64,000 bases of DNA from contig OY253672.1 of assembly GCA_958009085.1 (NCBI GenBank), positions 1,550,001 to 1,614,000 on the forward strand, read 5' to 3'. A model generated the notes under the pieces. The model had not been told where the DNA came from and did no database searches. It saw only the letters and a program-made list of their open reading frames with translations. Source of the DNA: Protoeuglena noctilucae. Lineage: Eukaryota. Each line of letters starts with the position of its first letter. Positions within the stretch are counted from its first letter, which is position 1. Of the stretch, positions 32,223 to 57,700 are shown one piece after another. The position numbers and the translations under genes are program-made.

Positions 32223-35200
32223 TCAGCTCTTCGCGTCCGCTGCCCCCTCCTGCTCCTTCCCCGTCGCCTCGACCCCCGGGAACGCCGCCTTGAGAACGTC
32301 CCTGTAATGCGACACGAATTGCACGTCCAGCCCCTCCCGGACCTCCGCGGGCGCCTCCTCGACGTCCCCCCGGTTGCCCTCGGGCAGTAGCACCGTCCGC
32401 AGCCCCGCCCGCAGCGCCCCCATGAGTTTCTCCTTAATTCCTCCAACCGGCAGCACCTGTCCCGTGATGGTCACCTCCCCCGTCATGGCCAGCCCCGGCG
32501 CCACCCTCTGCCCCAACGCGAGGGACATGAGGGCTGTCACGTACGCGCAACCGGCGGAGGGGCCGTCCTTGGGGATGGCACCCTCAGGGACGTGCACGTG
32601 AACCTGTGAGTCAAAAACAGAGAGACGACCCGTCGGCTCCCTGCAGAGTGCTTAGCAACCCGCACCTGCCACCCTCCCACGACGCGCATCACATGTTAAC
32701 TTGGCGCCCCTGTCCAGCACCCCTGTGCTGCACCCAAGCCAAACGTACACAGTAACGTCCAGTCAACCCCCCTCCCCTCACCTGCGCGTCCTTGAAGAAG
32801 GTGTCCCCCGGCCTGACCTCCTGCAGCAGTGCTCGCGCATACACGTGCGCAATCGACGCGCTCTCTTTCATCACGTCCCCCAGCTGCCCCGTAGTGGTCA
32901 GCGACCCCTGACTGGGACCCCCCTCCACGCGGCAGGCCTCCAGGTACATCACCGTGCCACCATATGCCGTATACCCCAGCCCCTGCACCACGCCCACGGG
33001 AGGCGCGCCCCCAAACAGCCGATCGCTGGGGAAGCGCTTCACCCCCACGTAACCCCGCAGGTCCCCCGCGTCCACCACCACCTCCCCTCTCCTCCCCATC
33101 AGCTTGTCCCACGACAGCTCCCGATAGGTACCCCTATCGGCCTCAACACCCCGAACGTGCTCCAGCGCCACCCTCCGCATCACACGCTCCACGTGCTGCT
33201 GCAGGGACCGCACCCCCGCCTCGCGGCAGTAATCGGAAACCAGAGCGTCGATCGCCGCTCCCGTCACGCGCACCGGCACCCCCGCAAGCCCCGCCTCCCG
33301 CACCGCCCTTGGCAGCAGGTGCGTGCGCGCGATGGCCGCCTTCTCTCTGTCCAGATACCCCGACAGCCGCACGACCTCCATGCGGTCGAGCAGCGGCGGC
33401 GGGATGCTCTCAATCACGTTCGCCGTGCACATGAACAGCACCTTGGATAGATCCAAAGGGACGTCCAAGTAATGGTCGAGGAATCCCGCGTTTTGCTCCG
33501 GGTCCAAGACCTCCAGCAGGGCACTCGCGGGGTCGCCCCGCATCGTGGCGCCCATCTTGTCGATCTCGTCAATGACGATAAGAGGGTTCAGCACCCCCAC
33601 CTTCTTGAGAGCCTGCGCCACCTTGCCGGGACCGGCCGCCACGAACGTGCGACGGTGTCCCTTGATCTCCGAAACGTCGTCAAGGCCACCGACGGAGAAT
33701 CGGAAGTAAGGGCGACCCATGGCTTTGGCCACCGAGTGGCAGATGGACGTCTTGCCCACGCCGGGTGGGCCCACCAGGCATAGCACGTTGCCTGGGGGAG
33801 TAGGGAGGGGAGGAGAGGGGGTGTGCGGAGTGATGGAGATGGGGAGAGATGGGGAGAGGGGAGATGGCGCGGGTGGATGCATGTTTGACGACAAGAGCGG
33901 CAGCAGCCGGCATGCTTGTGCCCTCACTCCTCACCCGATGGGCTCTGCTCTGCCGGAGAACCTCACAGTGCCTCACCCACTCATGCACTCACCCACTCCG
34001 TCACTCGCCCACTCCGTCACTCTCACTCACCCACTCACCCACTCCTTCACTCCCTCATTCCCCCCTTCCCCCACTCACCCGATGGGCTCTGCCTGAGTGC
34101 CTCGCCCAATCCTTCACTCATCCACTCATTCCCTCACTCATGAACACTCACCCGACGGGCTCTGCCTCAGCGCCGTGACGGCGATGAACTCGAGGACCCT
34201 CTGCTTCACGTCTGCCAGGCCGTAGTGGTCGTCATCCAGTATGGCCTGGGCCCTGGGAGAGATTAGAGGGGGATGGAGTATGTGAGATGGGTGAGATGGG
34301 TGGGATGGGTGTGGCGGGTGAGATGTGAGATGTTCCTGCCGCAGTGACACACTGCGCTTTGCATACTACTCCATCTGATACCACTCTGATACCACTCCAT
34401 CTGACAATCAATGCATCCACCATCCACCATCCACCAGTTCACCACCCCCCTCCCCCCCCTTATCGCTCTCGCCTCTTCAGGTCGTATGACTCTGGCACCG
34501 CCTGCTTCCACGGCATGCTCAGCAGCCAGTCCAGGTACGTCAGCGTGGTGCTGAAGTCGCCCGACTGCATCTCGGGGGAACGCACGCGCGCCAGCTCCTC
34601 CTCTACTACCTATGGGGGAGGGCAGGGGGGAGGGGGGGGGGATGAGATGTGAGATGTGATGAACGCACGCGCGCCAGCTCCTCCTGTACTACCTGGGGGG
34701 GGGGGAGAGTGAGATGGGGAGTGTTTGTGTGATGAGGGGCATGGGGGGTGTGAGAGTGAGATGGGGCGTGTTGTGTGATTAGGGGTAAGGGGGGTGAGAG
34801 TGATGTGGGTGGTGGCGCATGTCTAGCCGGTGCCGTGGGTCATCCCCCACCGCTCCCACGTCACCACCTCCCCATCACCTTGGCTACCTCTGCATTCCGC
34901 GCCCCCTTGCACAACACCCATGCATACCACCCCATATCTCACACCCCCCCATATCTCTCCCCCTTCTCACCTTTGCCGCCTCTGCGCTCAGCGCCCCCCT
35001 CCTCTCCTCCAGTCTGTCCACCAGTTTGCGCACGGCCGGGTGCAATGAGTCCTTGTCCTCGTATCCCAGCTGATTCTGAATCGACTTGAGCTGCTCCCGG
35101 AGTATCACTCTGGGGGGGTAAGGGGGGGTGAGGGGGGTGGTGAGGGTGGCAGTGAGGGTGGTGACATGGGTGGCAGTGAGGGTGGCAGTGAGGGTGGCAG

Positions 35201-38121
35201 TGGGGGTGGCAGTGAGGGTGGCAGTGGGGGTGGCGGTGAGGGTGGTGATATGGGTGGCAGTGGGGGTGGCAGTGAGAGCACGCACAGTGCCACCCGCTGT
35301 CTCCCCCCTCCACTTGCGCTGGTGTTTGCCTATGCTTCACCCCCCTCCCTTGCGCTGGTGTCTGCATACACACTCTGCCACTCACTTGCGCTGGTGTTCG
35401 AATATCCTCTCGGCCATGTCCCTCCGGACGTCCAGCAGCGCCGTGAGTGCTGCGTTCTCCTTCACCAGCATCTCCAGCACCAGGCGCAGGCGGGACACCA
35501 AGTCACGCTCCTCCAACACGCGCTGGGGGGAGGGGGATGAGAGAGTGGTGGTACAGGGTATGGTATGTGAGAGAGTCCTGACGAGCGAGTCTCAGTTGTG
35601 CATGCAACCACAAGCACCCCCCATCACGCAACCAACCCCACACTGCCACCCGCACACATTGCCACCCAGCCACGCCACCCAACCACTCCCACACCTATCA
35701 CCACACCTGCATGTCCGCAGCCTTGGTTTCCATGGCCAGCACCGCGGGTGCCAGCCACGACAGGTCCTGGGGCCTGGACAGATCGCCCCACATCGCCGCC
35801 GCCTGCAGCGCGTTGCTGTAATGGGGCCTGCCCCGTCGCAGTGCGTCCAGCTGCGACGTCACTTCGGCTGACAGAGCCGTGACCAGTCGCGATTGCCCCT
35901 CCGCGGGGCGGTCGGGGAGCCGCATGGCGTCGCAGCGGAGGGGAGAGGATGTGCCGCAACGCACACGCTTGACCCTGCGTGAGGGTAGGGGGGTGGGTGG
36001 TGACTGTGACTGTGTTGTCGAGATACTCGATTAGTAATGACTACTGCCAGTTGTGATGATGCTCGAGCATCTAACTGTGTGAAGATGACTGTCTGATCTC
36101 ATTGGTCACACTCATACACCCGTGCGCACCCACCCCCCCTCCAACCACTCCCTCACCTCTCCAGCCCCTTCACCAGCAGCAGCCACGACCCCTTAGGTGT
36201 CGGCACCACCGCCTGCACCTCGCACAGCGTCCCCATCTCTGCCAAATGATCGCACCCGCCCACCGCTGCCCCCTCCCCCTCCCCACTCGCACCCTCCCCC
36301 TCCCCCTCTCCCTCCACCCTCGCAGGCACCTCCGCTGACACCACCACAGGCACGGATGGCGATGCTAACAGGCTCTCAGCCGCTGCGTTGTGGGCGGACA
36401 GCATGCCGCGAATGGCGTCCAATCGATTCGACCCATCTCCCCCATTCGTGCTTTGTAATGTGTCCCCCTGCTGCCCCTGCTGCCCCAGCACATTGCCGAG
36501 GATGAAGAGTCGCGCCCCGCCCTCGTGCACCACCACGCGATCGCCGGGGAGGTGGATCTGAGGAGAGGGGGGGAGGGGAGGGGTGAGGTGGGGTGGGGTG
36601 GCACAGCTGTGATGGTGTGGGTGTGGCTGGAGATGAGATGGGTAATAGCAATAACATTGGCATGCCGCTCAATCAGTGCATCTCTCTGCCGATACCGGCA
36701 GCATCCGTGCACTCGTCACACTCCCACTTGCACCACGCACGCACCTCTTCTCTCCACATCACGCACTCACCACCCTTTCCCCACCCCACATCTTATCTTA
36801 TCTCATCCCATCCCATCCCATCCCATCACATATCGCATCCCACATCACATATCGCATATCAATCACTCGCCTCGTTCCCCGACTGTGCCGCTGCGTCGAA
36901 TTCCTCTTCGGTCGCAGAGAGGAACTCCACGGGGGGGGAGCCAGGCTGGCGGGACACGGTGGGACTGGGGGGAGAGATAGGGAGGGAGATGTGAGAGAGA
37001 TGAGTGAGAGAGATGAGAGGAGAGAGAGAGAGAGAGAGGGCTTTTGCAGGTGGGTGGGTGGGATGTGAGATGGGAGGGAGTGGTGGCTGCGTGGGACACA
37101 CGACCCACCTCCACACACCCCCCTCAACTCTCTGCCATAACCCACTCATGCACACCGCAAGCCATCTCCATACTTAACCCCCTTATCCATTTAATCCTCT
37201 CACCTGGGCAGTGCGGCTGCCCCCCTCGCCTCCTCCGCCTGCCCCGCCCCCGCCCACCCCCCCGCCCCCGCACTCAGCACGCCCTCATCCAACACATCGC
37301 CATCGCTGGCCGGGGTGGGGGTGCCCTGGCCGGGGCGACTGCAGAAGACGAGCAGCGCCGGGCGAGCGCCGGGCTTGTCTGCGGGGCAGCAAAGGGTATG
37401 GGGAGTGTTGCATGGGCACAAGAGATCACGACATCATCTCTGGACGTGAGGTGACATGGGCAGGTGACGATGCAATTAACAGGTCTGGTATATAAATGCA
37501 AATGAACATGTTCACAACTTCTCCCCTATGTTCCCCGCTCTCTCACCCCCCATCAGCTGCAGTTGCTCCCTCAGCATGTTGGTGACCAGCAGAGAGGGGC
37601 TGGTGACCTGCGCCACGTTCTTCAGCAAAACGGGCCGGGGGGACTCCAACGTCAGCATCCCGCGCAACAGACCGCGGCGGCGGGGGACGGAGGGCGCGGG
37701 GGGGTCTCCGGAAGGGGCCGGGACGGCGGCCCAGCCCTGCATCGCTGAGACCTTGCGCTCATGCCTGCGGGGCAGGACACACGGGGCGCTCGCGAGCCGC
37801 GGCGCGACGGTCGCGACTGCGGGGGTTTCCGCGGATAAACGCGCGGCTGAGAACGGCGCGAGAGGAGGCGCGCGCTCGCCTGTCGCGCTTGGTGCGGGGC
37901 TTCCGGTGCCGGCGCGTCGCCCGCCCCTCCGGCTCCTCCTTCGCCCCGCTCGACCTCCCCCGCAGCTGTCGCCGGCCCAGAAGACCTTCGCACGCGTGCC
38001 GCGCGGGGCCCGGCAGCCCGCTCCGGGCGTCCAGCGCGACCAGGCACGTCGCCGCGTGCCGTGGGCCCGTCATCCAGGCCACCCCCTGCAGGATGGCTCT
38101 CGCCAGGGTCCGCGACGACAT
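32223..38121 (-). CDS. LON: ATP-dependent Lon protease, probably mitochondrial (multi-exon)
   Basis: Walker [35 protein letters not shown]; catalytic PKDGPSAG and [25 protein letters not shown]. Arg-rich presequence-like start at ATG 38121. Confidence 0.93.
35120..35276 (+). repeat. About 12-bp minisatellite (GGGTGGCAGTGA/G)n in a Lon intron
   Basis: Visible tandem units with GTGACAT/GTGATAT variants. Confidence 0.9.
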
Positions 38122-38287
38122 CTCTGACCTTCTGACAGCCACGCCCGTCGCGCGCAGGGGCCCGCGAAACGCGCGGCGAGCGCGCGGGCCCAGCGTGTCC
38201 GCTGAGTGGCCACTCCCTCGGCCTGGGCCAGCAGCGATGCGCCGTGGCCCGTGGCGCCAATCGCAAGCACTACAGGGGGGTGCAAAA

Positions 38288-39037
38288 ATGCTATCTTCCA
38301 ATCTCTCCTCCCGTGTCCCTGCTCTCGGGCGACAAGCGACCGTCTGCAGGACAGACGGGGATCCACAAACCCAATGCGCACGCACCACCGTGTGAGTGAC
38401 GACGTTTCTGAGCTCGCGCTGTCGACGATGCCTTGNNNNNNNNNNNNNNNNNNNNNNNNNNNNNNNNNNNNNNNNNNNNNNNNNNNNNNNNNNNNNNNNN
38501 NNNNNNNNNNNNNNNNNNNNNNNNNNNNNNNNNNNNNNNNNNNNNNNNNNNNNNNNNNNNNNNNNNNNNNNNNNNNNNNNNNNNNNNNNNNNNNNNNNNN
38601 NNNNNNNNNNNNNNNNNNNNNNNNNNNNNNNNNNNGTGTGTCTCTCTCAACCCCTCTCCCATCCTCCCCCCACCCATGCATCTCCCATATCTCACAATTC
38701 CCCCGCCCCCATTCTCCCACAGCTAGAGTCCGAATTTCGCGACGCCCGCGCCCGACTGGAGTCGGTATTGATGCGAATGGACGCAGAGCACCGGCTGATG
38801 GGAGAGGTGCTGGCCAGGAGAGGCGACGCCTATTTGAAACTGGCGGGGGGGTCGCAGAACGCAGATGCGACGAATGGGCTGAGGCCAGCGACGGAGGGGG
38901 GCAGGGGGGCGGGGCTGGGGTGTGTCGCGGCTGCCGCCGGGCGCGGGCGTGGGGACGTGTTTGGGCAGTCGGGGCTGGGGGGGTGGTTCGCGCGGCTTAG
39001 GAGGCCTGAGTCGGCGCACCCGGTGATTGGGGGGTGA
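38288..39037 (+). CDS. Unknown protein interrupted by the assembly gap, divergent from Lon
   Basis: ATG 38288 starts MLSSNLSSRVPALGRQATVCR (transit-peptide-like), followed by a GTGAG donor near 38392. After the gap a CAG acceptor (38721) opens LESEFRDARARLESVLMRMDAEH...PVIGG* (TGA 39037). Linking the two parts is inference. Confidence 0.45.
38436..38635. other. Assembly gap (200 N)
   Basis: Run of N. Confidence 1.
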
Positions 39038-39432
39038 TTGGGGGGGTGGGGGGGGTGCTTGTGGGGTGGGGAGATGGGGGATGATGGGAGGGGGTGTGGG
39101 TGCAGGTTGGTAGGGTGGGTGGTGGTCGGTGCTGGTGGGGTAGAGGGGAAGGGGGTGGTGGGGTTGTTGCACTGGTCGGCGCTTGGTGCTTGGGGTAGCG
39201 TTGCGAGTGGCGCGTCGCTTGCCATTGCGAGTGTTGCACGGATCATGAGTTGGCGTGGCTAGTGCCGCACAATGCGCATGTGTGTGTTCAAAGCACGAAC
39301 CGGAAGCTATGCAGCGACATGTACTAAATGTCTTAGCCGCAGCCACGTGCGTGTCTTGCAACCCTATCCCCTCCATATCTCTCCATCCCCTCTCATCCCC
39401 ACCCTGTCCCCCCCACCTCACCCCCCATCTCC

Positions 39433-42400
39433 TCACTTGGCCTCATACCACGTGTCTGCCACCTTGCAATCCACCGCCAGCTTCACCCTCAGCCAGTCCC
39501 TCTCCACGTCTGCTGTTTCAAACGGATTCTCCATGCACCGAACCACAATGGCCTTCGCTTCTTCAGCTGTCTCACGGGGACCCTCCAAAATGACCTCATC
39601 GTGCACCTGAGGGATGAGGGGGTGGTGAGGGTGGGGGTGGGGGTGAGGGTGGCGTTAAGCGTGGTGGAGGGACCACACATCCACCCACCCACCCACACCC
39701 TGCCCCCCCCAACTCACCTGCAGCAGCAGCTTCCACCCCATCTCCCTCAACCGCGGGTGCCTCCATATCTTGACCATGCACGCCGTGGCCACATCCGCCG
39801 CCGATCCCTGGATGGGGGTGTTGATGGCGGCGCGCATGGCGTGACCGGAGGACTTTGCGTTGCTTGATGAGGCATCGGGCAGGCGGCGGCGGCGGCCCAG
39901 CATCGTGGGGACGTAGCCGCCCAAAGGACCGGAAGACTCTGGGGGTGGGTGGCAGTGGGGGTGGCAGTGGGGGTGGTGATATGGGTGGCAGTGGGGGTGG
40001 CAGTGGGGGTAGGATAGTGGGTGAATGTAGTCAGGGCGGTAAGGGAGTTGGTGGGCCATCGGTGTGAAAGTGCATGTGTGCGGTTGTTCATAACCCCGCA
40101 AGCGCATCACCCCTCCCCCCCCCCACACACACACTCACTCGCTTTGCTCCTCATGCGTTCCTGCCACTCCCCCACCTCCCTCCTCGCTTTATACCACTTC
40201 TGAATCGTCGCCTCCGCCTCCTCCTTCGTCACCCCAAAGTCATTCGCGAGCCCAAAGGCGGTCTTGCCATACGCGAGGCTAAAGTTGAGGATCTTGGCCC
40301 GCCGCCTCTCAGACGCAAACACGTCTTTTACCAATGGCCGGGGCGGGGGATCGTGCCCCGACTCCCCCCCATCCCACTCCAGAAGCACCTCCCCCCCCTC
40401 CACTGCCTTTGCGATGTGATCGTACATAGACAACGCCGTGCGGGAGTGGAAGTCCCCGCCCAATCGAAACGCCTCCACCATGCTCTCGCATCCAGCCATA
40501 TGCGCCAACAGTCGCAGCTCCAATTGACCGTAGTCAGCCACCACCAGCGTGTGGCCTTTGGAAGTATCGGCTCGGAATGCCTTGCGTATCTGGTATCGGT
40601 CTTTCTCCAGCGCTGGCTGGTTCTGCAGGTTGGGGCGGCGGGCGCTCAGGCGACCCGTCTCTGCGAGTGGGGGGGTGGGGGGGTGGGGGGTGAGGGTGGG
40701 TAGTGAGGGGATGAGGAGTGGGGTTGAGTAGTGAGGGAATGGGGGTTGGGTAGTGAGGGGTGGGGAATGAGGGTGAGGGGGTGGGCGAGCATAAGACACA
40801 TCGTCACATTGCCATGCATATACGTGCTGCATGCTGCTATCTTGCAACTAGCAAACTACATATCACATATCATCGATGCTCTATGTGCGCTGCCCCCTCG
40901 CCTGTGTTGAGGTTGAGGGAGCAGTGGACGCGTCGGTCGGGGGTGGCGATGTCGTCGCCCTGAAGTGGGATGATGAAGTTGCTGAGGAGAGTCTCTGAGA
41001 TGGGGGAGAGAGGGAGTGATGAGAGGCGTTGTGATGGTAGAGGGTGCTCGTATTACATGACGCGGACTGACATGCGCATCACCGCACTCTCTACCACTCT
41101 ACCACTCTCGCACACACAGCATGTCCACCACTGCCACTCCCACACTGCACAGCATGTCCACCACTGCCACTCCCACACTGCACAGTACTATCCACAACTG
41201 CACTCACCAATCGCCGACACCTCGCACAGCATGTCCATCGCCGCGCACCCCTCCAGCCCCAGCTGCCCCCCCCCGCACGCCTCATACATCTTGCCCAAGC
41301 CATGCTGCCTGGCATACGCAGCCAACTCCCCCCTCTCTCTCTCCGTCAATGCATAGTAGCCGCTGCCCAAGGGTGGGCGAGAGGGAAGGGCATTCTCGTC
41401 CACCCCATCCCCGCCACTCTCCCCCACAGCCACCGTAGCTGTGCTGTCACTGCCACCCTCACTACCCACCCCCTCCGCACCCCCACTCTCCCCCACCTCC
41501 TCACTCCCACTCTCTGCCGCCCCTTTCTTCTTCCTACCCCTCCCACCCCGCCCCTTGCCACCCTTCCCACCCTTACTCGCACTCGCACCCTCCACCACCA
41601 CCCCCTCCTCCCCACTCCCCTCACCCTCCCCACTCTCCCCATCCATGCTACCCCCCACCACCATCCCATCCCCCCCATCCATCCCCATTCCCTCCCCATC
41701 CTCATCACCCCCCAACATCGGCGCATTGGCATCCACATCCCGACACAGCACGCTGTCCGGAAATCGCTCCTTCAGCAGCCGCAGCGCCGCGCCGCTCTTC
41801 CCCGCCAATCCCCGCAACACGGGTGTACCCGCAGCCGGCGCCCCGCCCTTGGTGAAAGTGACGGGACGCACGCAATGCGGCAGCATCACCTCCCCGTCCG
41901 GCCCTATCCCCCACAAACACTCCAGCGACACCTCCCAGGTCTTGGCAGGCCGCCGCTGCCCCTCCCGCACCAGCCCCCACACGTTGTCCACCCGAAATGC
42001 GCGGGAGGGTGCGGGGCGCGGGGGTGAGCCCCTGCCCCTCTCTGGCGGCTTGCCCACTCCCCCAAACAGCAGCTGCTGCAGCTGCGCGGTGCTCTGGACG
42101 TTCATGCGCGCCGCTCCCGGCGCAAACACGGCTGCCCATTCCTTAAACCTTCGCGTCGCATCAGCCGCGTGCCCTTGCGCCTGCTCCATCGCACTCCTCA
42201 GGTGCTCCCGGTCCACCAGGAAGCCCTCTTTCTCCATATCTGTGAGCACTTCCCCGAATGGCATCCACACGGCCCGGTACACGTCCCACAGCGATCGTGT
42301 GTCTGGGAAGAGCGAGTCGCGGAGGCAGGCATCGATGTCATTGTGGGCGGGGCAGTCCATGAGAGAGCCCTCGAGTTGGTGGCGGAGCATCCAGGTGGCG

Positions 42401-45159
42401 ACTGGGGAGAGGGGAGGGGGGGGGGGGGGGGGGGGGGGAGTGGGTGGGTAGTGTGTTGTGGGGGGGAGATGGGGAGGGATGGGGTGGCGCATGCATGCAC
42501 ATTGAGGCTGCCTTAGTGCGTAAGGGGAGAGCCGTTGTGACCAAAGGCAGACATAAGGTATGGGCTGCTTGCAAGAGTGTCTAGTTTACCTCTCTGTCAC
42601 TCTCATCCACTCTTAGTCACACTCGATCCAACCCCCCTCACCCACTGTCACACTCAACCACATCCCCCCCCCCCCCCCACACTCACCCGCATCGTGCGCC
42701 GAGTACTCGATCCACCTCCCCCTCGTCAGCGGCCCCGCCTGCAGCGCCTCAACCCCGGGCATCCACCTTGCCTTCCCCAGCTCCCCGTCCTTCTTCACTT
42801 TATTACGCGAAAACAGCGTCTTCATGTCGGTCTTGCCGCGGAAGCCCTTGGGCATTAACGTCGCGTCGGATGTGAGGGAATCGAGGGCAAAAGATGCCCG
42901 CGAGGTGTCCAGCAGCCTCGCCATATGAAGCGTGTCGCCCGCGAAGCCACGCACCGCGACCCCCTCGTTCTCCAGCACGTGGCGGTCGAACCCGTAGTTG
43001 TGCCACACCTTGCGCACGCCCTCGTCACCGAAGAACCTCCCCAGCGCCGCCAGCATCTCGCCCCTCCGCTCCCCGCTCAGATCCACCCACAGCACGTCCT
43101 GCGCCACCCCCGCCCGCCCCTCGCTCAAGTCCAGCCCCGGCCCGCCATACACCGACAGGCAGATCACGCGCCCGTGCCCCACGGGGCTCTGCCTGGCCAG
43201 GTCGATGTCAGCGACCTCCGTGTCGCAAGCGTAGACGCGGCTGCGGTGGTGCTTGGTGGTCATGAGGCGAACGGCCGCCGCCGCTTCCTCGTAGTTGGCG
43301 TCTGTCACGCACAGCACGTTCTTGGGGGGGTCCACGGGCCAGGTGGGGTCGGACAGGCGAGACTTGGGGTGGGGTGGGGGAGTGGGGGGGTGTTAGGAGT
43401 GGTATGGAGTGGGTGAGGGTAGTGAGTAGGGGTGGGGAGAGGGTAGTGAGTGAGGGGAGGAGGGTGGGGCAGAGAGGGAAGCGAGCGGGCAGTGGGGCGA
43501 TGAGGATGGGATGTGGTGAGTGGGGCGATGAGGGACGGCAACAGCGTTGACAGGCCTCGTCACATTCAACTCATACCAACCCCCCTTGTCATCCACGTCA
43601 CTCACGTGCACCCACAGGTCTGCCACTCACACCACATTCCACCCCATCCACCCCTCTCACCTGCACCCGCGAAACTGCCAGTCACACCATCCTCATCCAC
43701 CCCCCTCACCATCTACGATGTCTATTACAATATCCCCAAGCCCTCCCCCCCTCACCTGCACCCACGGATCCGCCAGCTCCGCCTCGTCCGTCAGCCCAAT
43801 CACCGCCGCCAGCTCCTCCCCCGTCAGCCCCGGCGGACGGCGGCCCCTGGGGTCCCCCGCCGCATCCCACGCGGCCTGCAGTGCGGGGATGGCGCGGTCC
43901 ACCGCCGCGCGATCCTCACGGAGCTGCATAGGCGGGGAGAAGAGGTGAGCACAGGTGAGTGACGATGTCATTGTCATCAGTTACAATAACACGCACCCGC
44001 GCCCCCGCCTCTGGTCGACCGAACACCGTGACACGCTACTAATGATACATTAACCACTTGCTAACAGTCACCAACATCAATGTCATTACTATCAGCTGTA
44101 ATCATGCAACATGCACCGTGCATACACCCACGCCACCCCCCCCCCCCCCCCCCCCACCTTGTCGATGTAAGCTCGGTACTCTGGCGATCCCCCCGCTAAG
44201 ATGCGCTCTGCCGTCTCCCAGTCGTCCCCTTCCACTCTCACACCGCCACCACCACGGCTATTCAGCACTGCCGAGGGTGGGTGTTGCATGTCCGGTGTTG
44301 AGTCGTGAGCATGCTGGGGGGCAGGCAAGGAGTCCCGTGTGCCGTGGGCAGCCACCTCCGCCCCTGGTGCCACTCTGTTGCCGGGGTGCGTCGCGGTCGG
44401 TCCGTTCGCATGAACGGGATGTGGGCCGCGGGTGGGGGGGACGCGGGGACTGCCGGCGGGGGGGTGGCTGGGATGGGGAGAGGTCGGCATGGGATGGACA
44501 GGGCTAGGCATGGGATGGGGAGCGGCCCCAAGGGACCTAGTCCCCTCGCCCGGCCCGGCCAGCCCCCCAACGCTTGAACTGGGTAACATGCCCAGCGGCT
44601 TGCTTGGGCGTTGAGAGAAGGAGGGGACACCCCCGGACATGCCGCGCCCATCTGCAGTCGTTCCGGCCGTCGGCGGCAGCCCCCTCGCGCCCGCACCCGC
44701 CGCCCCTGGGTGGAGTAGCCGGGGAGTGTTGGGGGAGTTGGGCTGAAACACCTCCCCACGCCTCTGCGCAATGAGCGCGCCCTCCCATGGCGGTCGGTCC
44801 GCACGCGACCCCATGGATCGCTGTGTGCTCGCGGGGGCGGGGACGGGTAAATGGAGGCGGCGGGGAGTGGAGGGCGCGCCGCGGTCCGCGGGGGGCGGGG
44901 CGCGGGGGCCGCTGGGGTCCTCAGCGCGCGGTGGGTCCGAAGCAGGGCGGAGGTCGCGGGGTGTCCTCCCCAGCAGCCACCCCCGGAGGGCGCGGGTGCG
45001 CGAGCGCATGGCTGGGGCGGGGAGGGGAAGGGGCGTGAGCGGGGGAGCTGCGCGGGGCGGGGGATGCGGCAGCGGGGGCGCTCGCATACCTACACCGCGG
45101 ATGGCGCAGCGGGACGAGTGGCGGGCCCCAGTGTCCGAGAGGCCCACGGCGCTGGGCAT
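39433..45159 (-). CDS. Plant/protist organellar DNA polymerase (POP, family A) with 3'-5' exonuclease; 5' end approximate
   Basis: Exonuclease motifs ACDTE, KVWHNYGFDRH and YSAHDA. Polymerase motifs SLNLNTETGRLSARRPNLQNQP, VADYGQLELR, RRRAKILNFSLAYG, AINTPIQGSAAD and LLLQVHDE. C-terminus WYEAK* is typical of POP. Confidence 0.93.
39943..40010 (+). repeat. GGGTGGCAGTGG minisatellite in a POP intron, same family as 35120-35276
   Basis: A 35-nt block at 39971-40005 is identical to 35240-35274. Confidence 0.85.
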
Positions 45160-47439: not shown

Positions 47440-47559
47440 GCGGCGATTGCAGGAGTAGAGCCGAGAGGGCCTAACGTCTTCGTTCAAGAGTTATAGTTCC
47501 TGCTTCACATGCATCCATTGCCATCGTCAGTGTCACTGCCACTGGTTGGCAGTGGTCAA

Positions 47560-48171: not shown

Positions 48172-48442
48172 CTTGACGCAGCGCTGGGAGCCCGACGAGA
48201 TCAACGATCTGACGAGATTGGTTCAATGAAATTCCAGATTGACGCTCAACGGGGCCGTAGCGCCCTCAAATTCGGTGGATGGAGCGTGTGACTTGCGCAT
48301 GCGACTGGCACCAGCGAAACCGCCCGCGCATTTCCACGAGGAAAGTCCTCAGCCTTCTCAGGTGTTCCAACTCCAGTGTTTGGTGCGGTCGTGGGGTCTG
48401 TTGGAGTACTCGCCAGGGATGTGGACACCGTGGTGAAGGAGA

Positions 48443-51400
48443 ATGCCGCTCCTCAACGCTTGCGCCATCTGCGCTAAGCCCGCGGAGTTCCGATGCAGCA
48501 GGTGAGGTGTTTTTCTCGACGGGCAGCGTGGGCTGTCCGTCGACCGTGTCGATGATCGGCCCTGGCCCACTGCTGCACTGCTTGCGCTCTCACCGCCACA
48601 GGTGCAAGCGCGTGTTCTACTGCTCCGCGGATTGCCAGAAGGACGGTTGGGCTGATCACAAGTCGGAGTGTGGCAAACGGGCGGAGGACAGCGAGGCTGG
48701 CCCATCTGCTAGGGTTGCGGCCTCAACGGCACAGGCGGGGCCCTCGCAGAGTGTCAGGGCCGGAGGATGGACCGTCGGTGTGCCTCATCCTATTGGGGGG
48801 CCCCAGGGTTCGGGACCCTTAGGCACGGCGTCGCCGGACAGCGACAGGCTCACACAGGGCGAGGGGTCGACCGCCTCCGCGGCCTCCTCTGCCCCTGCGG
48901 TCCCGGCTTCACCCACGCCAACTACGATCGGCGCTGTGGGGGACGGAACGCCTGGTCCGACCGCCTCGGAGCGCGGCAGCGGGACGTGGACGATAGGCCA
49001 GCATGCCCCCCGCCGCCCGCCCGGTGAGCCCTTCACACGCCACCGCGCTGCGTCGCAAGCTTCATCCTTGTCGCATGCGTTTGCTCGCCGCGTTGCGTGC
49101 CACGAGGTTGCGCGCTCGTTCCGCGACTCGGAGTAGCAAGGACGGCCCCTTTTACTCCCCGTCCCCGCCGCCCCCGGCTCCGTTGCAACGCGGCTGCACT
49201 GGTCGCGCTCGCAGGTGGTCCTCGGCCCCCCAGCCGCGCCTCCTCGACGGCCAGCCGCGCCCCCGCCCCGGCACGCTCAGCCTCTTCTGTTTCCTCCGCC
49301 CCTCGCAAGCCCTCCGCGGGCCGCGACGACTTGGAAGAGACGAGTGAGTGCACGGGGCGCATGTATAAACATGACAGAACATAACAGCAACGCACGCTTG
49401 TGGTTGCGAACCCTTCCGGTCCATCTTTGGCACCCATCCTTCGTATCGCACGCCACCCCTCATGCCCCTCCGCTGCAGTGGGCAACGACGGTCCATCTTC
49501 GTCCGCTGCGCCCTCGCCGTCCGCGCCGCGAAGAGTCCGGCCACCGAGCGCGAGCACGAGTTCCTCGCCGGGTCCCGCGGCGGCCACGCCTCGCCGCCCC
49601 CCCCTGGGCTCCTCGCCCGTCCGCACCCGCACCTCGGATGGGGTTACAGTCGCAACACGCGACGTGGAGGAGTCGAGATCGGTGCCGGGCAGAGAGTCAG
49701 TCGATGCGGTCGAGTCGGCGTCATCGGTGTCTCGCATGGCCTCATTCCGAGGCCACGCCCTCCGACCCCGCGCATCCGCCCGCCCCCCCTCCCGCACCGC
49801 GTCACTCCCCGCCCTGCGGGACGCTGCAGCGCGCGGACCTGCCGACGCCGACGCCGCCCCTTCCGCCGCCCCGCCCGTCGCTCCCCGCCCCTCCAGCCGC
49901 GGCCACACCAGCGCCCTCCACTCCTCCGCTAACCCCGCCAACCCCGCCTGCCGACCCCCGCGCGGCGCTGCCAGTGCTGCCCCGCTGCCAGAGGCGCCCA
50001 CCGTCGAGAACTCCCCGCTCAAAGCCGCCGCGACAGGCACTGCGAGTGCGACTGCCACTGCGAGTGCTACTGCCACTACCACACGCGGCCCCCTTCCCTT
50101 AGGTGAGTCGCCTTACGCCATGCCATGCCACTCATGCCCTATGCCACTCACCCTCACCCTCACTCCTAGCCTCTGCCCTCACTCCCCGCCACTCCTTTCA
50201 CAAGCACTCTCTATTACTCTTAATCACTCTCACTCCCTTACTGTTACTACCCCAGACTCGCTCCTGGGACCCCCGGACGCCTCTGCCAAGGCCCCGTCCT
50301 CTTCTCTCCACCCTGCCGGCGCGTCGAGCGTGGTGGTGGTCACGCGCCCAACCCCGCCCCCAAGTGCCTCCCCCGACCTCGTCCGCGGTCTGTGGGAGTC
50401 GCTGGGACTTGCCACCCCCGCCACGCCGCGCGAGAGGGACTGCACCATCGACGACCTGCCCACCGAGGTGAGACGGGACTCTTGTTCTAAATAGCCAAGC
50501 ACTCTCTGTTAACGGCACCATCGACGACCTGCCCACCGAGGTGAGACTGGTGCTCTTGTTAGCAAGGGCCACTCTTTGTTATTAATGGCTAAGCACTCTC
50601 TGTTAGCAATGACCGATCACTGAAGCTGAGTGGTGAGACCGGAGGTGTGAGAGCCATTTACTGTCATGTGTAATTCCCTTTCCCTGTCACCCCTTCTCCC
50701 TGTTACGCCCACTCCATCACCCCCTCTCCCCTCTCCCCCCCCCAGATCCTTGAAACCATCTTCTGGGCAGCAACCCCACTTGTTACGCACCCCATCAACC
50801 CCACTCTTATCACATCACACCCCCTCTCCCTCTCCCCTCTCCTCACAGATCCTCGAAACCATCTTCCAGCAGCTCCCCGCCCCCGACCTGGCCCGATGCG
50901 CCCTGGTCTGCCGCACCTGGCGAGCCCTGTCCGAGACATCCTTCCTGTGGCGGGGCATCACGGGCATCTCCGAGGATGACTTGAGAGCCGCAGCCGTGCC
51001 ACCCGGGGGTTTCTCCCCAGACGCACTGCCCCCCGAGACGGCGCGAGTGCTGCGGTGGGTGCGCGTGCACGGCGTCGATTTGGCCGACGCCGCCCGCGCG
51101 TTCCGGGCCATGGCTTCCCCCAAGCCCAGCATCCTGAAGGCGCTCCACGCCGCCCGCGCGCGCGTGGCCAACAACTGGCGGCTGGGCCGATTCCGCGCCC
51201 GCTCGGTGGCCCAACATCAGGGGACGGTGGAGGTGGTGCGGCTGGTGGAGACGCGCGCGCTGGGGGACGTGGTGGTGAGCGGGGGATGGGACGGGAAGGT
51301 GCTGTTGGTGTCGAGGGAATCGGGGCGCGTCCTCCGCACCTACTCTGCGCACGAGGGGTGGATCACGTGCATGGCGGTGGGGAGGGCGGTGATGGCGTCC

Positions 51401-53459
51401 GGGTCCACGGGAGGGTCTGTGCGGATATGGGATTTGGGAGTGCCCGGCATGCCCATCGCCATCATGCAGTACCTGCACACCGGTGAGCGGGTGTGGTGGT
51501 GATGGTTGATGGGCGCTGCTAACTGTGAGCGCTGCCACTACGCAACCTAGCTGCCACCCATGCACACTGCCACCCATGCACCCTGTGTCTGCCCCTTCGC
51601 ACCGGACCCTTCCATGCCGGTCACCCCCTCTAGTGTCGTCCATAGCCATCCCCTTGCACCACATTCTCACCACTCTCACTCCCCCTTCTCACCCCCAGTG
51701 TCATCCATGACATTCATCGGCGACAGCGAGCGTTACCTGGCCATTGGTTTGGTAGATGGTCGCGTGCATGTCTGGGACGTCAGGGACGGGGTGCTGGTGC
51801 GGGTGCTGAGGGGACACACCCAAGTGCCGTGGTTCCTCCACGCACTGCGACTCATGCCGGCCGCACAGCCACAAGCGACAAAGGCAACCAACGCACCGCC
51901 ACCCGCACCCGCCTATCCCGGCCACCGCGACCTGTTCGGCAGGCTGGGCGGGCCGAGGGAGGGTGACGCGGAGGCAACGCGGCTCCCGGACGCAGCGCTG
52001 GTCACCGGGGGCCGCGACGGCGCGCTGCGGCTGTGGAGCCTGGGGGGTTCTCGCCCGGACCCCCCCGCACGGTCCCAGGTGCAGATCATATCGGACGCGG
52101 GGGGTGCGGGGGTGGTGAGAAAGGCGCTGTGCGTGCGGCGGGCGCACCGGGGTGCCGTGCTTGCGGTGGAGCCGCTCAATTTGGCCGACGTGACTGACGC
52201 CGATGGGTGGGTGGAGCTGGCGACCGCGCATGTGAGGGAGGCGGTCGGGAGGGGCCTGGCGCGCAACGCGGCGAAGAGAGAGGCGGAGCGGAGAGCAAGG
52301 GAGGCGGGGGCGGGGGCAGCGGGTGTGGCGGGGCCAGCTGGGGCAGCGGGGGCAGCAGGGGTGGAGGGGCAGGGGCACGGGCAGGGAGCGGCAGCAGGTG
52401 CGGGAGAGGGTGCGGGTGGTGGTGGTGAGGAGGGTGGTGAGGAGGGGTGGCAGTCGGGGCGCGAGGTGTGGGGTGACGGCGCTCCCTTCCCCCCCGGTCG
52501 CCTTCCTGAGGGCGTGGTGGCGAGCGGTGGCAGTGACAGCGTGGTCAAGCTCTGGGACATGCAGACGTGGGAGTGCGTGGCGGAGATGCGGGGCCACCGC
52601 CACGGGTGCCTGTCGCTGGCATTCTCACTGCCGCAGAGACCACAGGTGAGGGGTGGGTTAGGGTGCATGGGTGGATGGCGATGCATTGGTGGATGGCGAT
52701 GCATGGGTGGATGGCGATGCATGGGTGGATGGCGATGCATATGTGGATGGCAATGGTTGGCGAGGGGTCACCGGGTGTGGCTTCCCCATCGCTCGTATTT
52801 GCCACTCACACCCGACAGCCGCTGTCACTCTGAATGGTGTGATCTCTCCCTCTCCCGTCAACAGCTGCAGCGAGTCTAACCATTGCACTTACAATTGCAA
52901 ACCCTAACCCCACATCACAACCCATCCCCGCTCTTCTCCGCAGACGAGCGCCCCTTTGTCGTTCGGGTCTCGCCCCCCCACGTCCGCCAGGGGCGCCCTG
53001 TGGCTGCTGAGCGGCAGCCAGGATCACGAGACGCGCATTTGGGAGGTTTCCAGCGCCCAATGCCTAACAGTACTATCACACCACTGTGCGCCCGTCACCG
53101 CGCTGCAGTGCCACGGGGCGCAGCTGGCCACGCTTGCGGCGGGGGATGGGCTGGCGGCGTTTATCAGGGCGCCCTTCGATCCGTCGCTGCACGAGGGGCC
53201 GGGTGCGGCAGAGAGTGAGGGGGGGCGGGGGAGGGGCAGGGGCACGCTGGGTGTGCGGGCGGAGGTGGCGAGGGCGAGGGGCGTGCCGGCGGGGGAGGGG
53301 GAGAGCGTGGGGTTGCCGGGCATGGGGCTGGAGCAGGTGTTGAGTCTGCTGGACGGCGCTGGGGTGTCGTTCGCGGCTTCCCTGGCTATGGACAGGAAGG
53401 GACTCGCGCTGGGGACGCAAGTGGGGGAGCTGTGTCTGTACGATTTCGCGGCCGCGTGA
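48443..53459 (+). CDS. MYND zinc finger - disordered linker - F-box - WD40 repeat protein
   Basis: MYND: CAIC...CSRCKRVFYCSADCQKDGWADHKSEC. F-box: IDDLPTE|ILETIFQQLPAPDLARCALVCRTW. WD40: SGGWDGKV, ASGSTGGSVRIWD, SGGSDSVVKLWD and SGSQDHETRIWE. The exons from MYND through the F-box join in phase. Confidence 0.85.
52665..52752 (+). repeat. 18-bp tandem repeat (TGCATGGGTGGATGGCGA) x about 5 in an F-box gene intron
   Basis: Directly visible. Confidence 0.9.
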
Positions 53460-54739
53460 CAGGGGGGCATGGAATGGGGTGACGAGGAGTGGAAGTGGGG
53501 GAGCTCTGTGTTTATGACTTCGCAGTTGCTTGACGGGGGGGGGGGGCATTATGAGTGGTGACGGAGGGACATGGGATGGGGTGACATGGGGATGGAGCGC
53601 ATGAGGGCGTGCGTCGTGAGCGGTGGCGCATGAGTAGAGCTGCGTCTTTGAGGAGAGGTAGGCCGAGTGTCTGAGCGTGGCTGTGCCTTAACCCAATGCC
53701 TTAACCCACACATCTAGTGGTGTGCTTGCGTTTCAACTAGATAAGTTTGAAGGAACCTCAGGGAACGCATTAGCTCGGGCAGTATGTGCTTGCAACTTTT
53801 TGCAACGTCGCGCGGCAGTGGGCACCGAGGGAGGGATTGGGCCTCCCCCCATCGGTGGGCAGAGGGCGCAGAGGGGCGCAGTCGACAGGCGGGAGTGCCG
53901 TCGCGGTTGCTAGGGAAAGGCAGTCGCGGTTTCTAGGGAAAGGGGCGGCAGGGTGGCAGGGGTGGCAGGGGTGGCATCGGCATCGCTGCTGCCGACGCGG
54001 GGACCGGGCGGGGGGTGCGGCGGGGCGTGCATGCGAGTGCACATCCCGTCGGGAGAGGAGGGGCGGCTCGGCTAGGGAAAGGGATCGGGATGTGGGAACC
54101 GGCAGCTATGCAGGGTTTGCAAGGGGGGTAGGAAGCAGGCACAGCTGACCGAGAAAGGGATTGGGATGTGGGAACCGGCAGCGCAGTATGCAGGTGGTTT
54201 GCGAGGGGCCAGTGGAGGGGAAGGGACGACGGCGGCTGCGACCCCCCCACTGGCGGCGAGGCTGGCGAGACTGGCACTGGATTGGAACAAAACTGGCACG
54301 GGTGCGGGACGGGCGGCACAAACGTGACATGCGATGGGATGGGACGGGATGCGCTGCAGCGGCGCTCTGCAGCCGGCGGGTTGCCGGGAAGGGGGATGCA
54401 CCGGGGGTGGAGGGCGGCGCAGCGCTACTCCCTCGCTAGCGCTGGCAGAGGGAGTCTGGGGTGGCTGGGCCTGGGCTGGAGTCGCGGAGAGGCCGGGACA
54501 AGAGGCGGGGTATGGCAGGTCAAAAGGCAGGCAGTGGCGTGGTGGGCCGTCACATGAACAGACAACGGTAGATGCGGTGGGGGTGCAGGCGGCTGCCTGG
54601 CCGCTGAAGGGTTCGCAGTGCAGCGGCGGTGGCGACGGTGTGGGAGTGAGGCGTGGAGAACGTAAGGCGAGTGTCGCGGCACGGCATTGCAGCGCGAGCG
54701 TTGCAGCGAGCGGGAGTGTTGCAGCGCGGGTGTCTCGCG

Positions 54740-57700
54740 TCACGCCGGCCCGCACACGGCGGGCAGGAGTGCGATGAGTTGGTCTCGCACATCCGTCATG
54801 GACGGTCGCTTCTTGCGGTCTGCGCAGAGGCACTGACTGTAGAGGACGCAGAGGGGCAGGGAGGGGACGGGGAGGGGGGGGATCTGGGGGAGGGGAGAGA
54901 GGTGGGGGGGCGTGGTGGGTGATGGGTGCTGAAGCCATGAATGAGTGAGGCACAGCATTGCATCATAACTGCTGTGACGATGAGGGGAGAGGTGCAGGGT
55001 GGTGGTCAGAGAGTGCAGGGCGCACCAAACAGCCGAGAGTGAGGCAACGCCTTGCATCCGGACTGCAGTGTCACCCCATAGCCATCGCGACCGCAGTGCC
55101 ACCCCATCGCATGTGACCTGCAGTGGCAGTCTCAACCTCACCTCCCCCCTCCGCTTCGAGTCGAGGATGGCCGGCAGCGTCATGGCGTCGTATGCCCCCC
55201 TCCCCGCGACCATGTGGAAGAGCAGCAGACCCAGGGCATAGACATCCGCAGCAGGCGACAAATACGCGTGCTCGTCTGTCACACACTCGGGGGGCATCAC
55301 GGCCTGGGGAGAGGTGGGAGGAGGGGTGTGTTAGTGATAAAGAACATAATGGGGTCAATTGGTGATAAATCACAAATAAAGAACATAGAGAGGTGCATGG
55401 CGAATCATGGTGCATGGGTCATGGTGCACAGTGCATGGGTCATGGGTCACGCATGTAAGCATGGGTCATGATGCATGGTTGAAGCCATCTGAGTGGTGCA
55501 TGCGTCTCACCATGGTCCCGCGGGTGGTGAGTGGCGCTGCCCTGCATGGCGCGTGACACAGAGAAGTCAACGATCTTCGCCAGGAAGGCCTTGCCGGCGC
55601 GATTAGCGTAGGGAGACACCGCGCGCCTGCGTCCCTCCCACGCGTCCCGCTCGGCGCCCTCAGAGCCGAAGCACTGCCCGCCCAGCAACTCGCGCTCTGA
55701 GGGAAGAGTGGGGAGGTACGAGGGGTGGTGAGACGGCGGGGATGCGGTGCAATTGGGTTGCATGGGAGTGGCGTGGGTGCTGGTGTGCGGTCACAACATA
55801 GCATGGGTGTGGGTGTGAGTGTGGGCGTAGGCATGTGTGTGTGTGTGGGTATGAGCATGCAAGTGCGTGTGTCTCTGTCCCTCACCCGTGTGTGAGTGCT
55901 TGGCGTGGGAGCACAGCATGATGTTGCTGGCCTTGATGTCGCAGTGGACGACGTTGCGAGAGTGTAGGTAGGCCGCGCCCTCCGCCACGTCAATCTGCAA
56001 CCATGGTGCCAGATGACGGTGGCAAACGACCACGGGTCATGACCGTGGCAGATGACGGTGGCAGTCACGTGGTGAGGGCGCAGCACAGCATGGCAAATGA
56101 CGGTGGCAATGGGCGGGCGATGGACGGGATGTCACGCGGGGGGTGCCATACAGCACAGCTTGGCAATAACAAGTCAGCATCTCTCTCCCCATGCCCATTC
56201 ACGCACTCACCAGCGTCAGCATCACCAGGGGCAGGTCAGCCTCCCACGTCCCGTCCTCCCGGCGCGTGTGGAAGGAGGGGCCACCCTCCCCAGACAGACA
56301 CTCACGCAGGTCGCCCATGTCACTGCGAGGTGGGGAGGCGGTGGCGTGAATGAGCTATCGGGATGGGCCAATCACTCACGCAGGTCGCCCATGTCACTGC
56401 GAGACAGGGACCTGACGGTCACGGATGCAATGGCATGAGATGAGAGGCAATTGGAACAGGCAGTGGGTATTTTTCACACAACACAACCTCGCAAGCCCTC
56501 TTCCGCTCACCACAGCTCCATGGCCATGCACACGTGACCCCGCGTCGGCCCCCTCCCTCCACCGCCCCCCGCCAGCCACGCCAATCGACTCGACGTGGTT
56601 GAGGCTTCCCCATCACCGCGAACCGACTCGCGGCCCCAAGGCCCAGCCGACCGCCCCGTCCCAGTCAAACTCTGGCTACGGCTCTGACTGTGGCTATGGC
56701 TCTGGCTCTGGCTGCCCTCCCCGCCCCTCGCTGCGGTCGTGGACCCTCCACGAGTGCTCCCCACCCCCCGCTGGCTGCTCTCCCGGCTGCCCATCTTCCG
56801 GCTGCCCGTTTCCCGGCTGCCCGTCTCGTTCACCGTCTCTGACCCCACCGACGCGTGACGCGACAACACCATGCTCGGCTTGCGGTCCTCAGGGGCCATC
56901 ACAGTCTCTGCGGCCATTACAACACATCACATCACAGTCCAGTCTCACACAGCACAGTGTGACGGGCACACACAGCACAGCCCACACCCACCCACACACC
57001 CACACACACGCCACAGTCCACCCAAACACAACCCCCGCCCCTGCCGCGCCCCGCCCCCGCTCACCGACGCTCTTCCCCGGCGCCACCGCACGCCGCCGCA
57101 TCCCCAGCAGACCCGGCAGCCGCAGCGTCCCCCACACCCCCCCCCCCATCTTGGCATCCATCACCTCCTCCAACACGTGAGCCGCTGCATCACCCTCATC
57201 CGCCACCCCATCGGCACCCGTCGACGCAGCGCGCCCTAAGGACCCCGGGCCGTGGCCAGTGGCGGAGGCCTGGGAGGGTGCGAGGCTGCCAGCGCTGGCC
57301 GTGGCGCAGGACGCCGTCGGCGCCTTCAGATCCGGTCGCCGGGGGGTGCGCGTGACGAACACCAGCAGCAGCCGCGCCAGGTTGGGATGGGCCAAGTCCA
57401 TCGACGCGGCGAAGTCCACCTCCCCCAGCGCCCCGCACTGCCGGCGACGATCCTGTGAGGGAGAGATGAGGCGCGTGACAAAGCGTGTACGATGATTAAG
57501 CATGCTTGCAGCTGAGCGGCTCATCGCGGCAGATCAGCCACTGCGACCCTAGCTCCCCAGGCGCCAGCCACTGCGGCCCGCCATGCGCCATTGCCCACCT
57601 CATCGACGCGCGCCCCCAGCTGCAGGACGCCCAGGGTGCCCCTCGGGACCCTCCCCCTCGGCCACACGGCGCTGGGCCTGTCTGGGTCCGCCAGCAGCGG

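Follow-up and report, generated by a model that had tools for sequence, protein, structure and literature searches.

Copies of exon-intron boundaries within the introns of four neighbouring genes of Protoeuglena noctilucae

A stretch of 64,000 nucleotides (nt) of the Protoeuglena noctilucae assembly (GenBank GCA_958009085.1, contig OY253672.1, positions 1,550,001 to 1,614,000; hereafter the window, numbered from its first letter) raises the question of why introns should carry copies of their own exon-intron boundaries. Such copies, here called echoes, had been noticed by reading the sequence in four genes, those of a Lon protease, a family-A DNA polymerase, an F-box/WD40 protein and a protein kinase. 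The original prediction proposed an ongoing local duplication that lengthens introns and could open a route to intron sliding or gain, or, alternatively, frequent duplications of which only those whose extra copy is removed by splicing persist. The analysis reported here agrees best with the latter idea: the echoes are probably by-products of frequent, short-range, head-to-tail duplication, filtered by its effect on the mRNA.

Echoes at the splice junctions

The window, of eukaryotic origin, has a guanine-plus-cytosine (GC) content of about 65%; its introns are of the GT..AG type, a few being GC..AG, and its proteins find their best matches in green algae. Its DNA also occurs in marine metagenomes, and its exons are covered by contigs from marine metatranscriptomes. 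Genes were called by running Pfam on open reading frames (ORFs) picked by their contrast in third-position GC (Table 1). The polymerase gene had earlier been labelled POP. It does not encode a prolyl oligopeptidase, its Pfam domains being DNA_pol_A and a 3'-5' exonuclease, and it is a plant-type organellar DNA polymerase.

Splice junctions were fixed in two ways, giving a mapped set of 23 introns and 46 exon-intron boundaries. Joints in RNA contigs, shifted to GT/GC..AG, defined 14 introns: five in the kinase gene, three in a highly expressed minus-strand gene at 47.5-48.2 kilobases (kb), four in a plus-strand gene at 45.9-47.3 kb, the first polymerase intron and the one that ends at the F-box acceptor. 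The first polymerase intron rests on a loose RNA contig end that matches the outermost donor copy only. Nine further introns (five in Lon, four more in the polymerase gene) were defined by spliced alignment to homologues, using tblastn and then frame-keeping pairs of GT/GC and AG. Because the best homologous proteins are only 67% (Lon) and 75% (polymerase) identical, the exon ends of these two genes rest on homology combined with GT/GC..AG. No close relative was found in a metagenome scan with the large Lon exon, which returned 80 loci, all at 55% identity or less.

A clear copy of the junction was found in the same intron at 9 of the 46 boundaries and a weak copy at one more, in agreement with the earlier count of at least eight boundaries in four genes. 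The clear echoes are 14-45 nt long, lie 36-217 nt away and belong to the Lon, organellar polymerase, F-box/WD40 and kinase genes. The first begins at 33930 and the last ends at 56403, exactly the range originally given. The comparison with shuffled controls that had been suggested was run on introns of the window: in 22 introns with their 44 boundaries, the 40 nt surrounding each boundary were compared with the remainder of the same intron, and the scores with those of 300 dinucleotide-preserving shuffles. The observed score was never matched by the shuffles at 9 of the 44 boundaries, the weak one included, for a chance expectation of about 0.15. The tenth boundary, the Lon donor 35386|35385, was found after the scan and stands outside the shuffle test. 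With the weak case counted, echoes concern 4 of 10 boundaries in Lon, 3 of 10 in the polymerase gene, both boundaries in the F-box gene and 1 of 10 in the kinase gene. They were found at none of the 14 boundaries of the two short-intron genes located at 46-48 kb.

Except for the units at polymerase position 41208, each echo comprises 12-32 nt of exon edge and 3-15 nt of intron. Of the 12 copies covering the junction, 10 retain the GT or AG. Identity to the real copy goes from 100% down to about 80%, in keeping with the spread from exact to diverged copies seen at first reading. Three cases are acceptor echoes, in which the unused copy lies upstream of the used acceptor. Echo-bearing introns average 310 nt, versus 174 nt for the other 16 (one-sided Mann-Whitney p=0.002); when the echo offsets are deducted, their mean is 171 nt. 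The duplications therefore explain the extra intron length.

Four of the boundaries are in Lon. At the donor 35386|35385, the exon end falls in the first of three 36-nt units; the copy 36 nt away has GT changed to GG, the one 72 nt away retains GT, and the matches are of 18/20 and 16/16 positions. At the donor 34971|34970, the real copy (about 34967-34998) is echoed, with some divergence, 92 nt into the intron at 34875-34906 (26/32 identities, GT retained). The acceptor 34610|34609 (real copy 34578-34622) is echoed 83 nt upstream, at 34661-34705, with 41/45 identities (91%) and the AG retained. Finally, the donor 34152|34151 (real copy 34145-34174) has two echoes that both retain GT, one 73 nt away at 34072-34101 (27/30) and one 217 nt away at 33930-33948 (18/19), with an 8-nt microsatellite between them.

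In the polymerase gene, the donor 43756|43755 (real copy 43746-43776) is followed by echoes at 43651-43681 (26/31) and 43601-43625 (21/25), 95 and 150 nt away, in an array of units of roughly 55 nt. A loose end of an RNA contig from the X9 run joins 43364 to the outermost of these donor copies only. At the donor 41208|41207, a 33-nt minisatellite (41115-41205, 2.8 copies) has a first unit that spans the junction; it is related along its full length to 62 nt across the junction, and the donor segment is deleted in its two intronic units. The weak echo is that of the donor 42687|42686, a match of 16 nt (14/16) located 29 nt into the intron, in which the GT is lost.

Both mapped boundaries of the F-box/WD40 gene are echoed. 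The donor 50467|50468 recurs 73 nt downstream, with 33 nt exact and 37/39 identities, the similarity extending over 46 nt at 93%. The acceptor 50848|50849 (real copy 50828-50866) has its echo 106 nt upstream, at 50722-50763; 30/36 positions are identical in the junction scan, and 42 nt at 86% in a longer alignment. An RNA contig of the X8 run aligns from 50847.

The kinase acceptor 56323|56322 (real copy 56299-56329) is echoed 74 nt away, at 56373-56403, with 31/31 identical positions. The echo is located in the intron 56323-56510, whose joint, 56322 to 56511, is present in X8. On the minus strand, this echo presents an acceptor copy followed, 17 nt later, by a donor-like motif that comes from copied exon sequence. 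The sequence would allow a frameshifting exon of 17 nt at this place.

Duplications away from the splice junctions

An annotation-free self-comparison of the window yielded 12 families of high-complexity local direct repeats: six at splice junctions, one at the F-box stop codon, three in non-coding sequence, one in the ankyrin ORF and one that is unclassified. Over the whole window, 15 high-complexity direct matches were counted at offsets of 15-400 nt, and none in each of the bands at 401-800, 801-1200, 1201-1600 and 2001-2400 nt. No high-complexity local inverted repeat was found in the window.

Duplications of this kind also exist outside introns. A block made of the last 13 codons of the F-box/WD40 gene, its stop codon (53457-53459) and the first part of the 3' flank recurs 74 nt downstream, where it can still be translated into a related peptide that ends at a stop. 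The convergent F-box and kinase genes are separated by a transcribed, non-coding stretch, in which 30 nt at 54077 recur at 54153, 76 nt apart and at 97% identity, with an unrelated spacer of 23 nt; RNA contigs cover 53718-54883. Intron interiors were duplicated in the F-box and kinase genes (Table 1).

Two other pairs were set aside. The 23418/23709 pair belongs to the ankyrin portion of the zinc-finger ORF, with its copies 291 nt (97 codons) apart, and was taken as an old protein repeat. The 1136/1187 pair resembled the echo of a minus-strand donor; it sits in an apparent intron of a plus-strand gene for a coiled-coil protein and was given no class.

Table 1. Positions of the echoes, of other local duplications and of genes and introns in the window
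Feature	Position	Strand	Basis
Lon donor, exon end 35386, first unit of 36-nt x3 array	35306..35413	-	homology
Lon donor, exon end 34971	34875..34998	-	homology, 0/300 shuffles
Lon acceptor, exon start 34609	34578..34705	-	homology, 0/300 shuffles
Lon donor, exon end 34152	33930..34174	-	homology, 0/300 shuffles
Polymerase donor, exon end 43756	43601..43776	-	RNA contig end, 0/300 shuffles
Polymerase donor, exon end 42687, weak echo	42649..42693	-	homology, score 11, 0/300 shuffles
Polymerase donor, exon end 41208	41115..41244	-	homology, 0/300 shuffles
F-box/WD40 donor, exon end 50467	50439..50560	+	0/300 shuffles
F-box/WD40 acceptor, exon start 50849	50722..50866	+	0/300 shuffles
Kinase acceptor, exon start 56322	56299..56403	-	RNA joint, 0/300 shuffles
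Duplication across F-box/WD40 stop codon	53419..53541	+	self-comparison (49 nt, 80%)
Duplication in transcribed non-coding stretch between convergent F-box and kinase genes	54077..54182	.	self-comparison
Intron-interior duplication, F-box	50482/50576		self-comparison
Intron-interior duplication, kinase	56006/56046		self-comparison
Pairs 73-76 nt apart	34072/34145, 50442/50515, 53419/53493, 54077/54153, 56299/56373		
Lon protease	~36.7 kb down to 32.2 kb	-	Pfam
Family-A DNA polymerase (DNA_pol_A + 3'-5' exonuclease)	43.8-39.4 kb	-	Pfam
F-box/WD40 gene	~50.2-53.46 kb	+	Pfam
Protein kinase	~56.9-53.7 kb	-	Pfam
Dynein heavy chain	9472-16746	-	7.3-kb uninterrupted ORF
Ankyrin/CCCH zinc-finger gene	23092-24456	+	long uninterrupted ORF
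Chlorophyll a/b-binding gene	26875-28509	+	long uninterrupted ORF
GC-AG intron	47163-47251	+	RNA contig joint
GC-AG intron, Lon	34253-34472	-	homology only
GC-AG intron, polymerase	40661-40901	-	homology only

Origin of the echoes

A simple scheme can be proposed for the filtered head-to-tail duplication that we favour. Minisatellites would be born and would grow all along these genes, with units of 29-106 nt, the best-preserved being of 73-76 nt. A new copy would persist only if it left the mRNA unchanged, that is, in an intron, in an untranslated stretch or across a coding/non-coding border, provided that the spare copy fell on the side that is not coding. If the block straddled a splice junction, the first donor or the last acceptor, being the outermost site, would still be used, while the inner copy would become a silent pseudo-site in an intron one unit longer. 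We infer here a mutational step (slippage, unequal exchange or break repair), a selective filter on the duplications and the silence of the inner sites.

Several observations are consistent with this scheme. The outer site is used in all three cases informed by RNA contigs (the kinase acceptor, the F-box acceptor and polymerase 43756); elsewhere, it is designated by protein homology or, for the F-box gene, by its motif. No RNA contig was found to use an inner site among the 15 of 36 joints listed, a set of assembled contigs to which Lon does not contribute. Homology over the whole unit is observed in the polymerase 43756 array, in the polymerase 41208 unit, in the 36-nt array of Lon and in 4 of the 10 spacers compared: those of the F-box donor, also related to the sequence that follows the echo (p=0.002), of Lon 34152 (p=0.002), of the F-box stop codon (p=0.034) and of the kinase acceptor (p=0.048). 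An eleventh comparison was between the two echoes of one junction.

The relation of the duplications to the junctions was studied by tiling the 22 introns and their exons with 40-nt tiles, a hit being a copy in the adjacent intron. Exon tiles located at least 20 nt from a junction gave no hit (0/956), whereas those at 0-19 nt gave 20/170. Exon sequence is thus copied only when contiguous with the border, which argues for the duplication of a border-crossing block rather than for the copying of random nearby templates. At a score of at least 14, hits were obtained for 27/167 donor and 27/172 acceptor tiles, versus 192/765 in intron interiors; with a dinucleotide entropy of at least 3.3 in addition, the figures are 16/107 and 15/103 versus 63/410. 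At this moderate threshold, junctions are therefore echoed about as often as any intron sequence. Moreover, taking units of about 75 nt in introns about 300 nt long, a simple expectation is that about 40% of the tolerated duplications that touch an intron straddle one of its borders; the large proportion of junction echoes can therefore be explained without targeting. A process directed at splice junctions is not supported, because the same duplications occur in intron interiors, in a non-coding stretch and across a stop codon. As regards the original prediction, duplications that lengthen introns (310 versus 174 nt) and leave spare splice sites (GT or AG kept in 10 of 12 copies) are thus retained and a targeting of junctions is not, while the alternative of frequent duplications that survive only if the extra copy is spliced out is the one that fits best.

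It should, however, be noted that several points weigh against this interpretation. Tandem duplication predicts homology over the full unit, but most pairs share only 20-58 nt of a unit of 73-106 nt. The 31/31 kinase echo stands beside a spacer that is at best 72% alike, and the 54077 spacer is unrelated. The exon part of the echoes never exceeds 32 nt and represents 0.17-0.40 of the unit in eight cases, although uniformly placed breakpoints would put some exon shares above one half (0.5^8 = 0.004). As a guess, the low exon share could come from selection against strong decoys. At a stricter threshold (score of at least 18, entropy of at least 3.3), junction tiles gave 12/107 and 12/103 hits versus 16/410 for intron interiors, an excess of about threefold. 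Whether junction repeats are commoner than other local repeats thus depends on the threshold: they are not at the moderate one and are at the strict one. The excess may reflect the constraint on the real copy together with a complexity filter that penalises low-complexity intron sequence. Finally, the silence of the inner sites is deduced from few assembled RNA contigs (the 15 of 36 joints listed).

Among the other explanations, a duplication of set length retains some plausibility, while being clearly less likely than unspecific duplication. Five well-preserved, independent pairs have their copies 73-76 nt apart (the Lon donor and the F-box donor, 73; the F-box stop codon and the kinase acceptor, 74; the 54077 pair, 76), with p of about 0.02-0.03 in a scan statistic against uniform offsets. 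This clustering is suggestive. It is conceivable, if somewhat doubtful, that a duplication of about 74 base pairs (bp) seeds twin splice sites, some of which are kept identical by conversion or selection. That half the length of a nucleosome lies behind the spacing is only a thought. If such a process exists, introns lengthen in steps of fixed size, and identical donors or acceptors that compete with each other form a dense natural series in the genome, including cases in which the second of two identical acceptors prevails; should the cluster be found genome-wide, it would point to a mutational mechanism defined by length.

Templated insertion, in which a break in the intron is mended by copying 15-50 nt of nearby template in a reaction of the polymerase-theta end-joining type, seems unlikely. 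It would account for blocks separated by an unrelated spacer, as seen at 54077, for the 31/31 kinase copies with their poorly matching spacer (28/39), and for the shortness of the copied blocks, which do not exceed about 58 nt. No sequence elsewhere in the 64-kb window significantly matches the spacers that separate the real copies from their echoes, in line with local sequence rather than inserted elements; for the same reason, an origin from a mobile element was rejected. Repair of the polymerase-theta type, however, yields copies in both orientations, and inverted local copies number 0 versus 15 direct ones. Exon interiors did not serve as templates (0/956), several spacers are related to the neighbouring unit, and several arrays have at least three regular units.

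The inner copies might instead be functional, for example by recruiting splicing factors, as decoys or helpers, or by providing alternative sites for unproductive, regulatory transcripts. The frequent retention of GT or AG, the exact or nearly exact state of three echoes (33/33, 31/31 and 33/34) whose spacers differ, and the position of the kinase echo, which lies between a good acceptor and a donor-like motif and could form the 17-nt exon, would agree with such a role. We nevertheless hold it to be improbable: the same structures exist outside splicing, at the stop codon and in the non-coding stretch, older copies decay to about 80% identity, donors are lost in the polymerase 41208 units and in one Lon 35386 unit, and the RNA joints listed involve no inner site.

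Another idea is that duplications create introns. Intron gain by tandem genomic duplication was reportedly treated by Gao and Lynch in 2009. In the AGGT model (Hellsten et al., 2011, PMC3265369; reviewed in PMC3443670), as at this locus, a short intragenic tandem duplication gives two equivalent splice signals and leaves the coding sequence unchanged. In that model, however, the new intron is made from exon sequence, whereas here an existing intron is only lengthened. On a reading by intron gain or sliding, the echoes would be footprints of the duplication of an AGGT-containing exon piece, or of a shift of splice site, and duplicated donors and acceptors are indeed the raw material of both models (PMC3443670). 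The route to intron sliding or gain first envisaged nevertheless appears very improbable in the window: no intron consists of duplicated exon sequence, copies of exon interiors are absent from the adjacent introns (0/956), the used site is always the one that preserves the conserved protein, and every echo-bearing intron also holds unrelated sequence.

Independent DNA contigs bear on the reality of the repeats. They come from X5, a marine environmental DNA metagenome run of a separate study, and were compared as contigs, not reads, with the Lon region outside the comparison. Without a single difference, they carry three pairs: the polymerase 43756 array (contig 42675-44122), the F-box acceptor pair (50518-52366) and the 54077 pair (53535-54897). 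At the F-box donor pair, the contigs stop at 50471 and resume at 50518, and at the kinase repeat one stops at 56328; these three ends are branch points of a 31-mer graph, given the exact 33-nt and 31-nt repeats. Only contigs identical to the window were seen among those placed on it. An error of assembly or polishing, which exact 31-33-nt repeats at the near-constant distance of 73-76 nt (k-mer-sized joining errors) and a 200-N gap in the window (38436-38635) could have suggested, is hardly credible in view of three pairs unchanged in independent contigs that break at the borders of both exact repeats and of the divergence of most echoes, an argument against a pure artefact already raised at the outset.

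The head-to-tail duplication favoured here can be compared with known systems. In intron 7 of the human F7 gene, a 37-bp minisatellite has a first unit that spans the exon 7-intron 7 border; the downstream, identical donors are silent and the most upstream site is chosen (PMC1557585). Four of our cases resemble it (the donors at Lon 35386, polymerase 41208, polymerase 43756 and the F-box donor), with a repeat that starts at the exon edge and a true donor followed by near-identical donors. The repeats are direct only, regular arrays are present at Lon 35386, polymerase 41208 and polymerase 43756, and the first or last unit holds the exon edge and the splice site, the intronic units of polymerase 41208 being the exception. 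F7 is, however, one locus, whereas 9-10 of 46 boundaries in four adjacent genes are concerned here; acceptors are also echoed (three cases, with the downstream acceptor used), and many pairs consist of two copies with a partly unrelated spacer rather than of a regular array.

Tandem repeats are enriched in introns and near intron-exon junctions in Chlamydomonas and Volvox (PMC3887541), and the window likewise has the GC-rich composition and the introns crowded with tandem repeats of these green algae. The units in that survey are of at most 50 nt, however, and units made of an exon edge and a splice site are not described in its accessible part. Polymerase-theta-type copying finds no counterpart in the window, where inverted copies number 0 versus 15 direct ones and exon interiors are uncopied.

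Introners are another possible comparison. The direct repeats of introners are target-site duplications that flank the element on both sides. Such introns, derived from transposons and present in Micromonas among other marine algae (PMC9860276), share with the present case a marine algal host, a change in intron length and short direct repeats beside splice sites. Introners are, however, dispersed elements similar to each other, whereas each echo copies its own neighbouring junction. Dispersed copies are absent from the 64-kb window, in which spacers and echoes match their own neighbourhood only; there are no high-complexity local inverted repeats, and the echoes lie inside the introns, not at their opposite end. 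Single junction-spanning duplications are thus known, but their density here is unusual; in the literature searched, dense duplications of this kind in an alga are not described.

If the proposed reading holds, the locus shows how introns can grow in a repeat-prone algal genome without machinery specific to junctions. It would also offer a natural test set for the choice of splice sites, with identical donors 73 nt apart and identical acceptors 74-83 nt apart that share 24-32 nt of identical exon context, of which only the outer site is used according to assembled RNA contigs and protein homology. For annotation, it carries a warning, as gene predictors can choose the inner copy and produce frameshifted models.

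Neighbouring genes and minor features

The two halves of the window differ sharply in their load of introns and minisatellites: genes located at 34-57 kb are rich in repeat-filled introns, and most of the 65 tandem-repeat entries of the window fall between 33.9 and 57 kb. For the dynein, zinc-finger and chlorophyll a/b-binding genes, all domain matches fall in a single long uninterrupted ORF or in a few of them; introns thus seem to be few there, which is probably why no echoes had been noticed in them (as dynein, TZF and Lhcb5) at first reading. Three of the 23 introns, a high share, are GC-AG introns with a donor starting with GCGAG (Table 1). The 200-N assembly gap is upstream of the mapped Lon exons and separates them from the polymerase gene.

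In the F-box gene, a 15-nt motif occurs at 50201-50215, 50497-50511 and 50591-50605, in two different introns. This recurrence hints that intron pieces spread among the neighbouring introns of the gene.

In one metatranscriptome run, the segment 56645-57311 has a word depth of about 1574, versus single digits elsewhere, and it contains a CA-rich 12-nt repeat (56967-57034). The high depth could correspond to a highly expressed piece or to repeats common to other organisms. Lastly, a 6-nt microsatellite of 27 copies (16071-16231) lies in the dynein ORF, just upstream of its first AAA match, and may be an expansion of the coding sequence that keeps the frame or else an intron without stops that escaped recognition.

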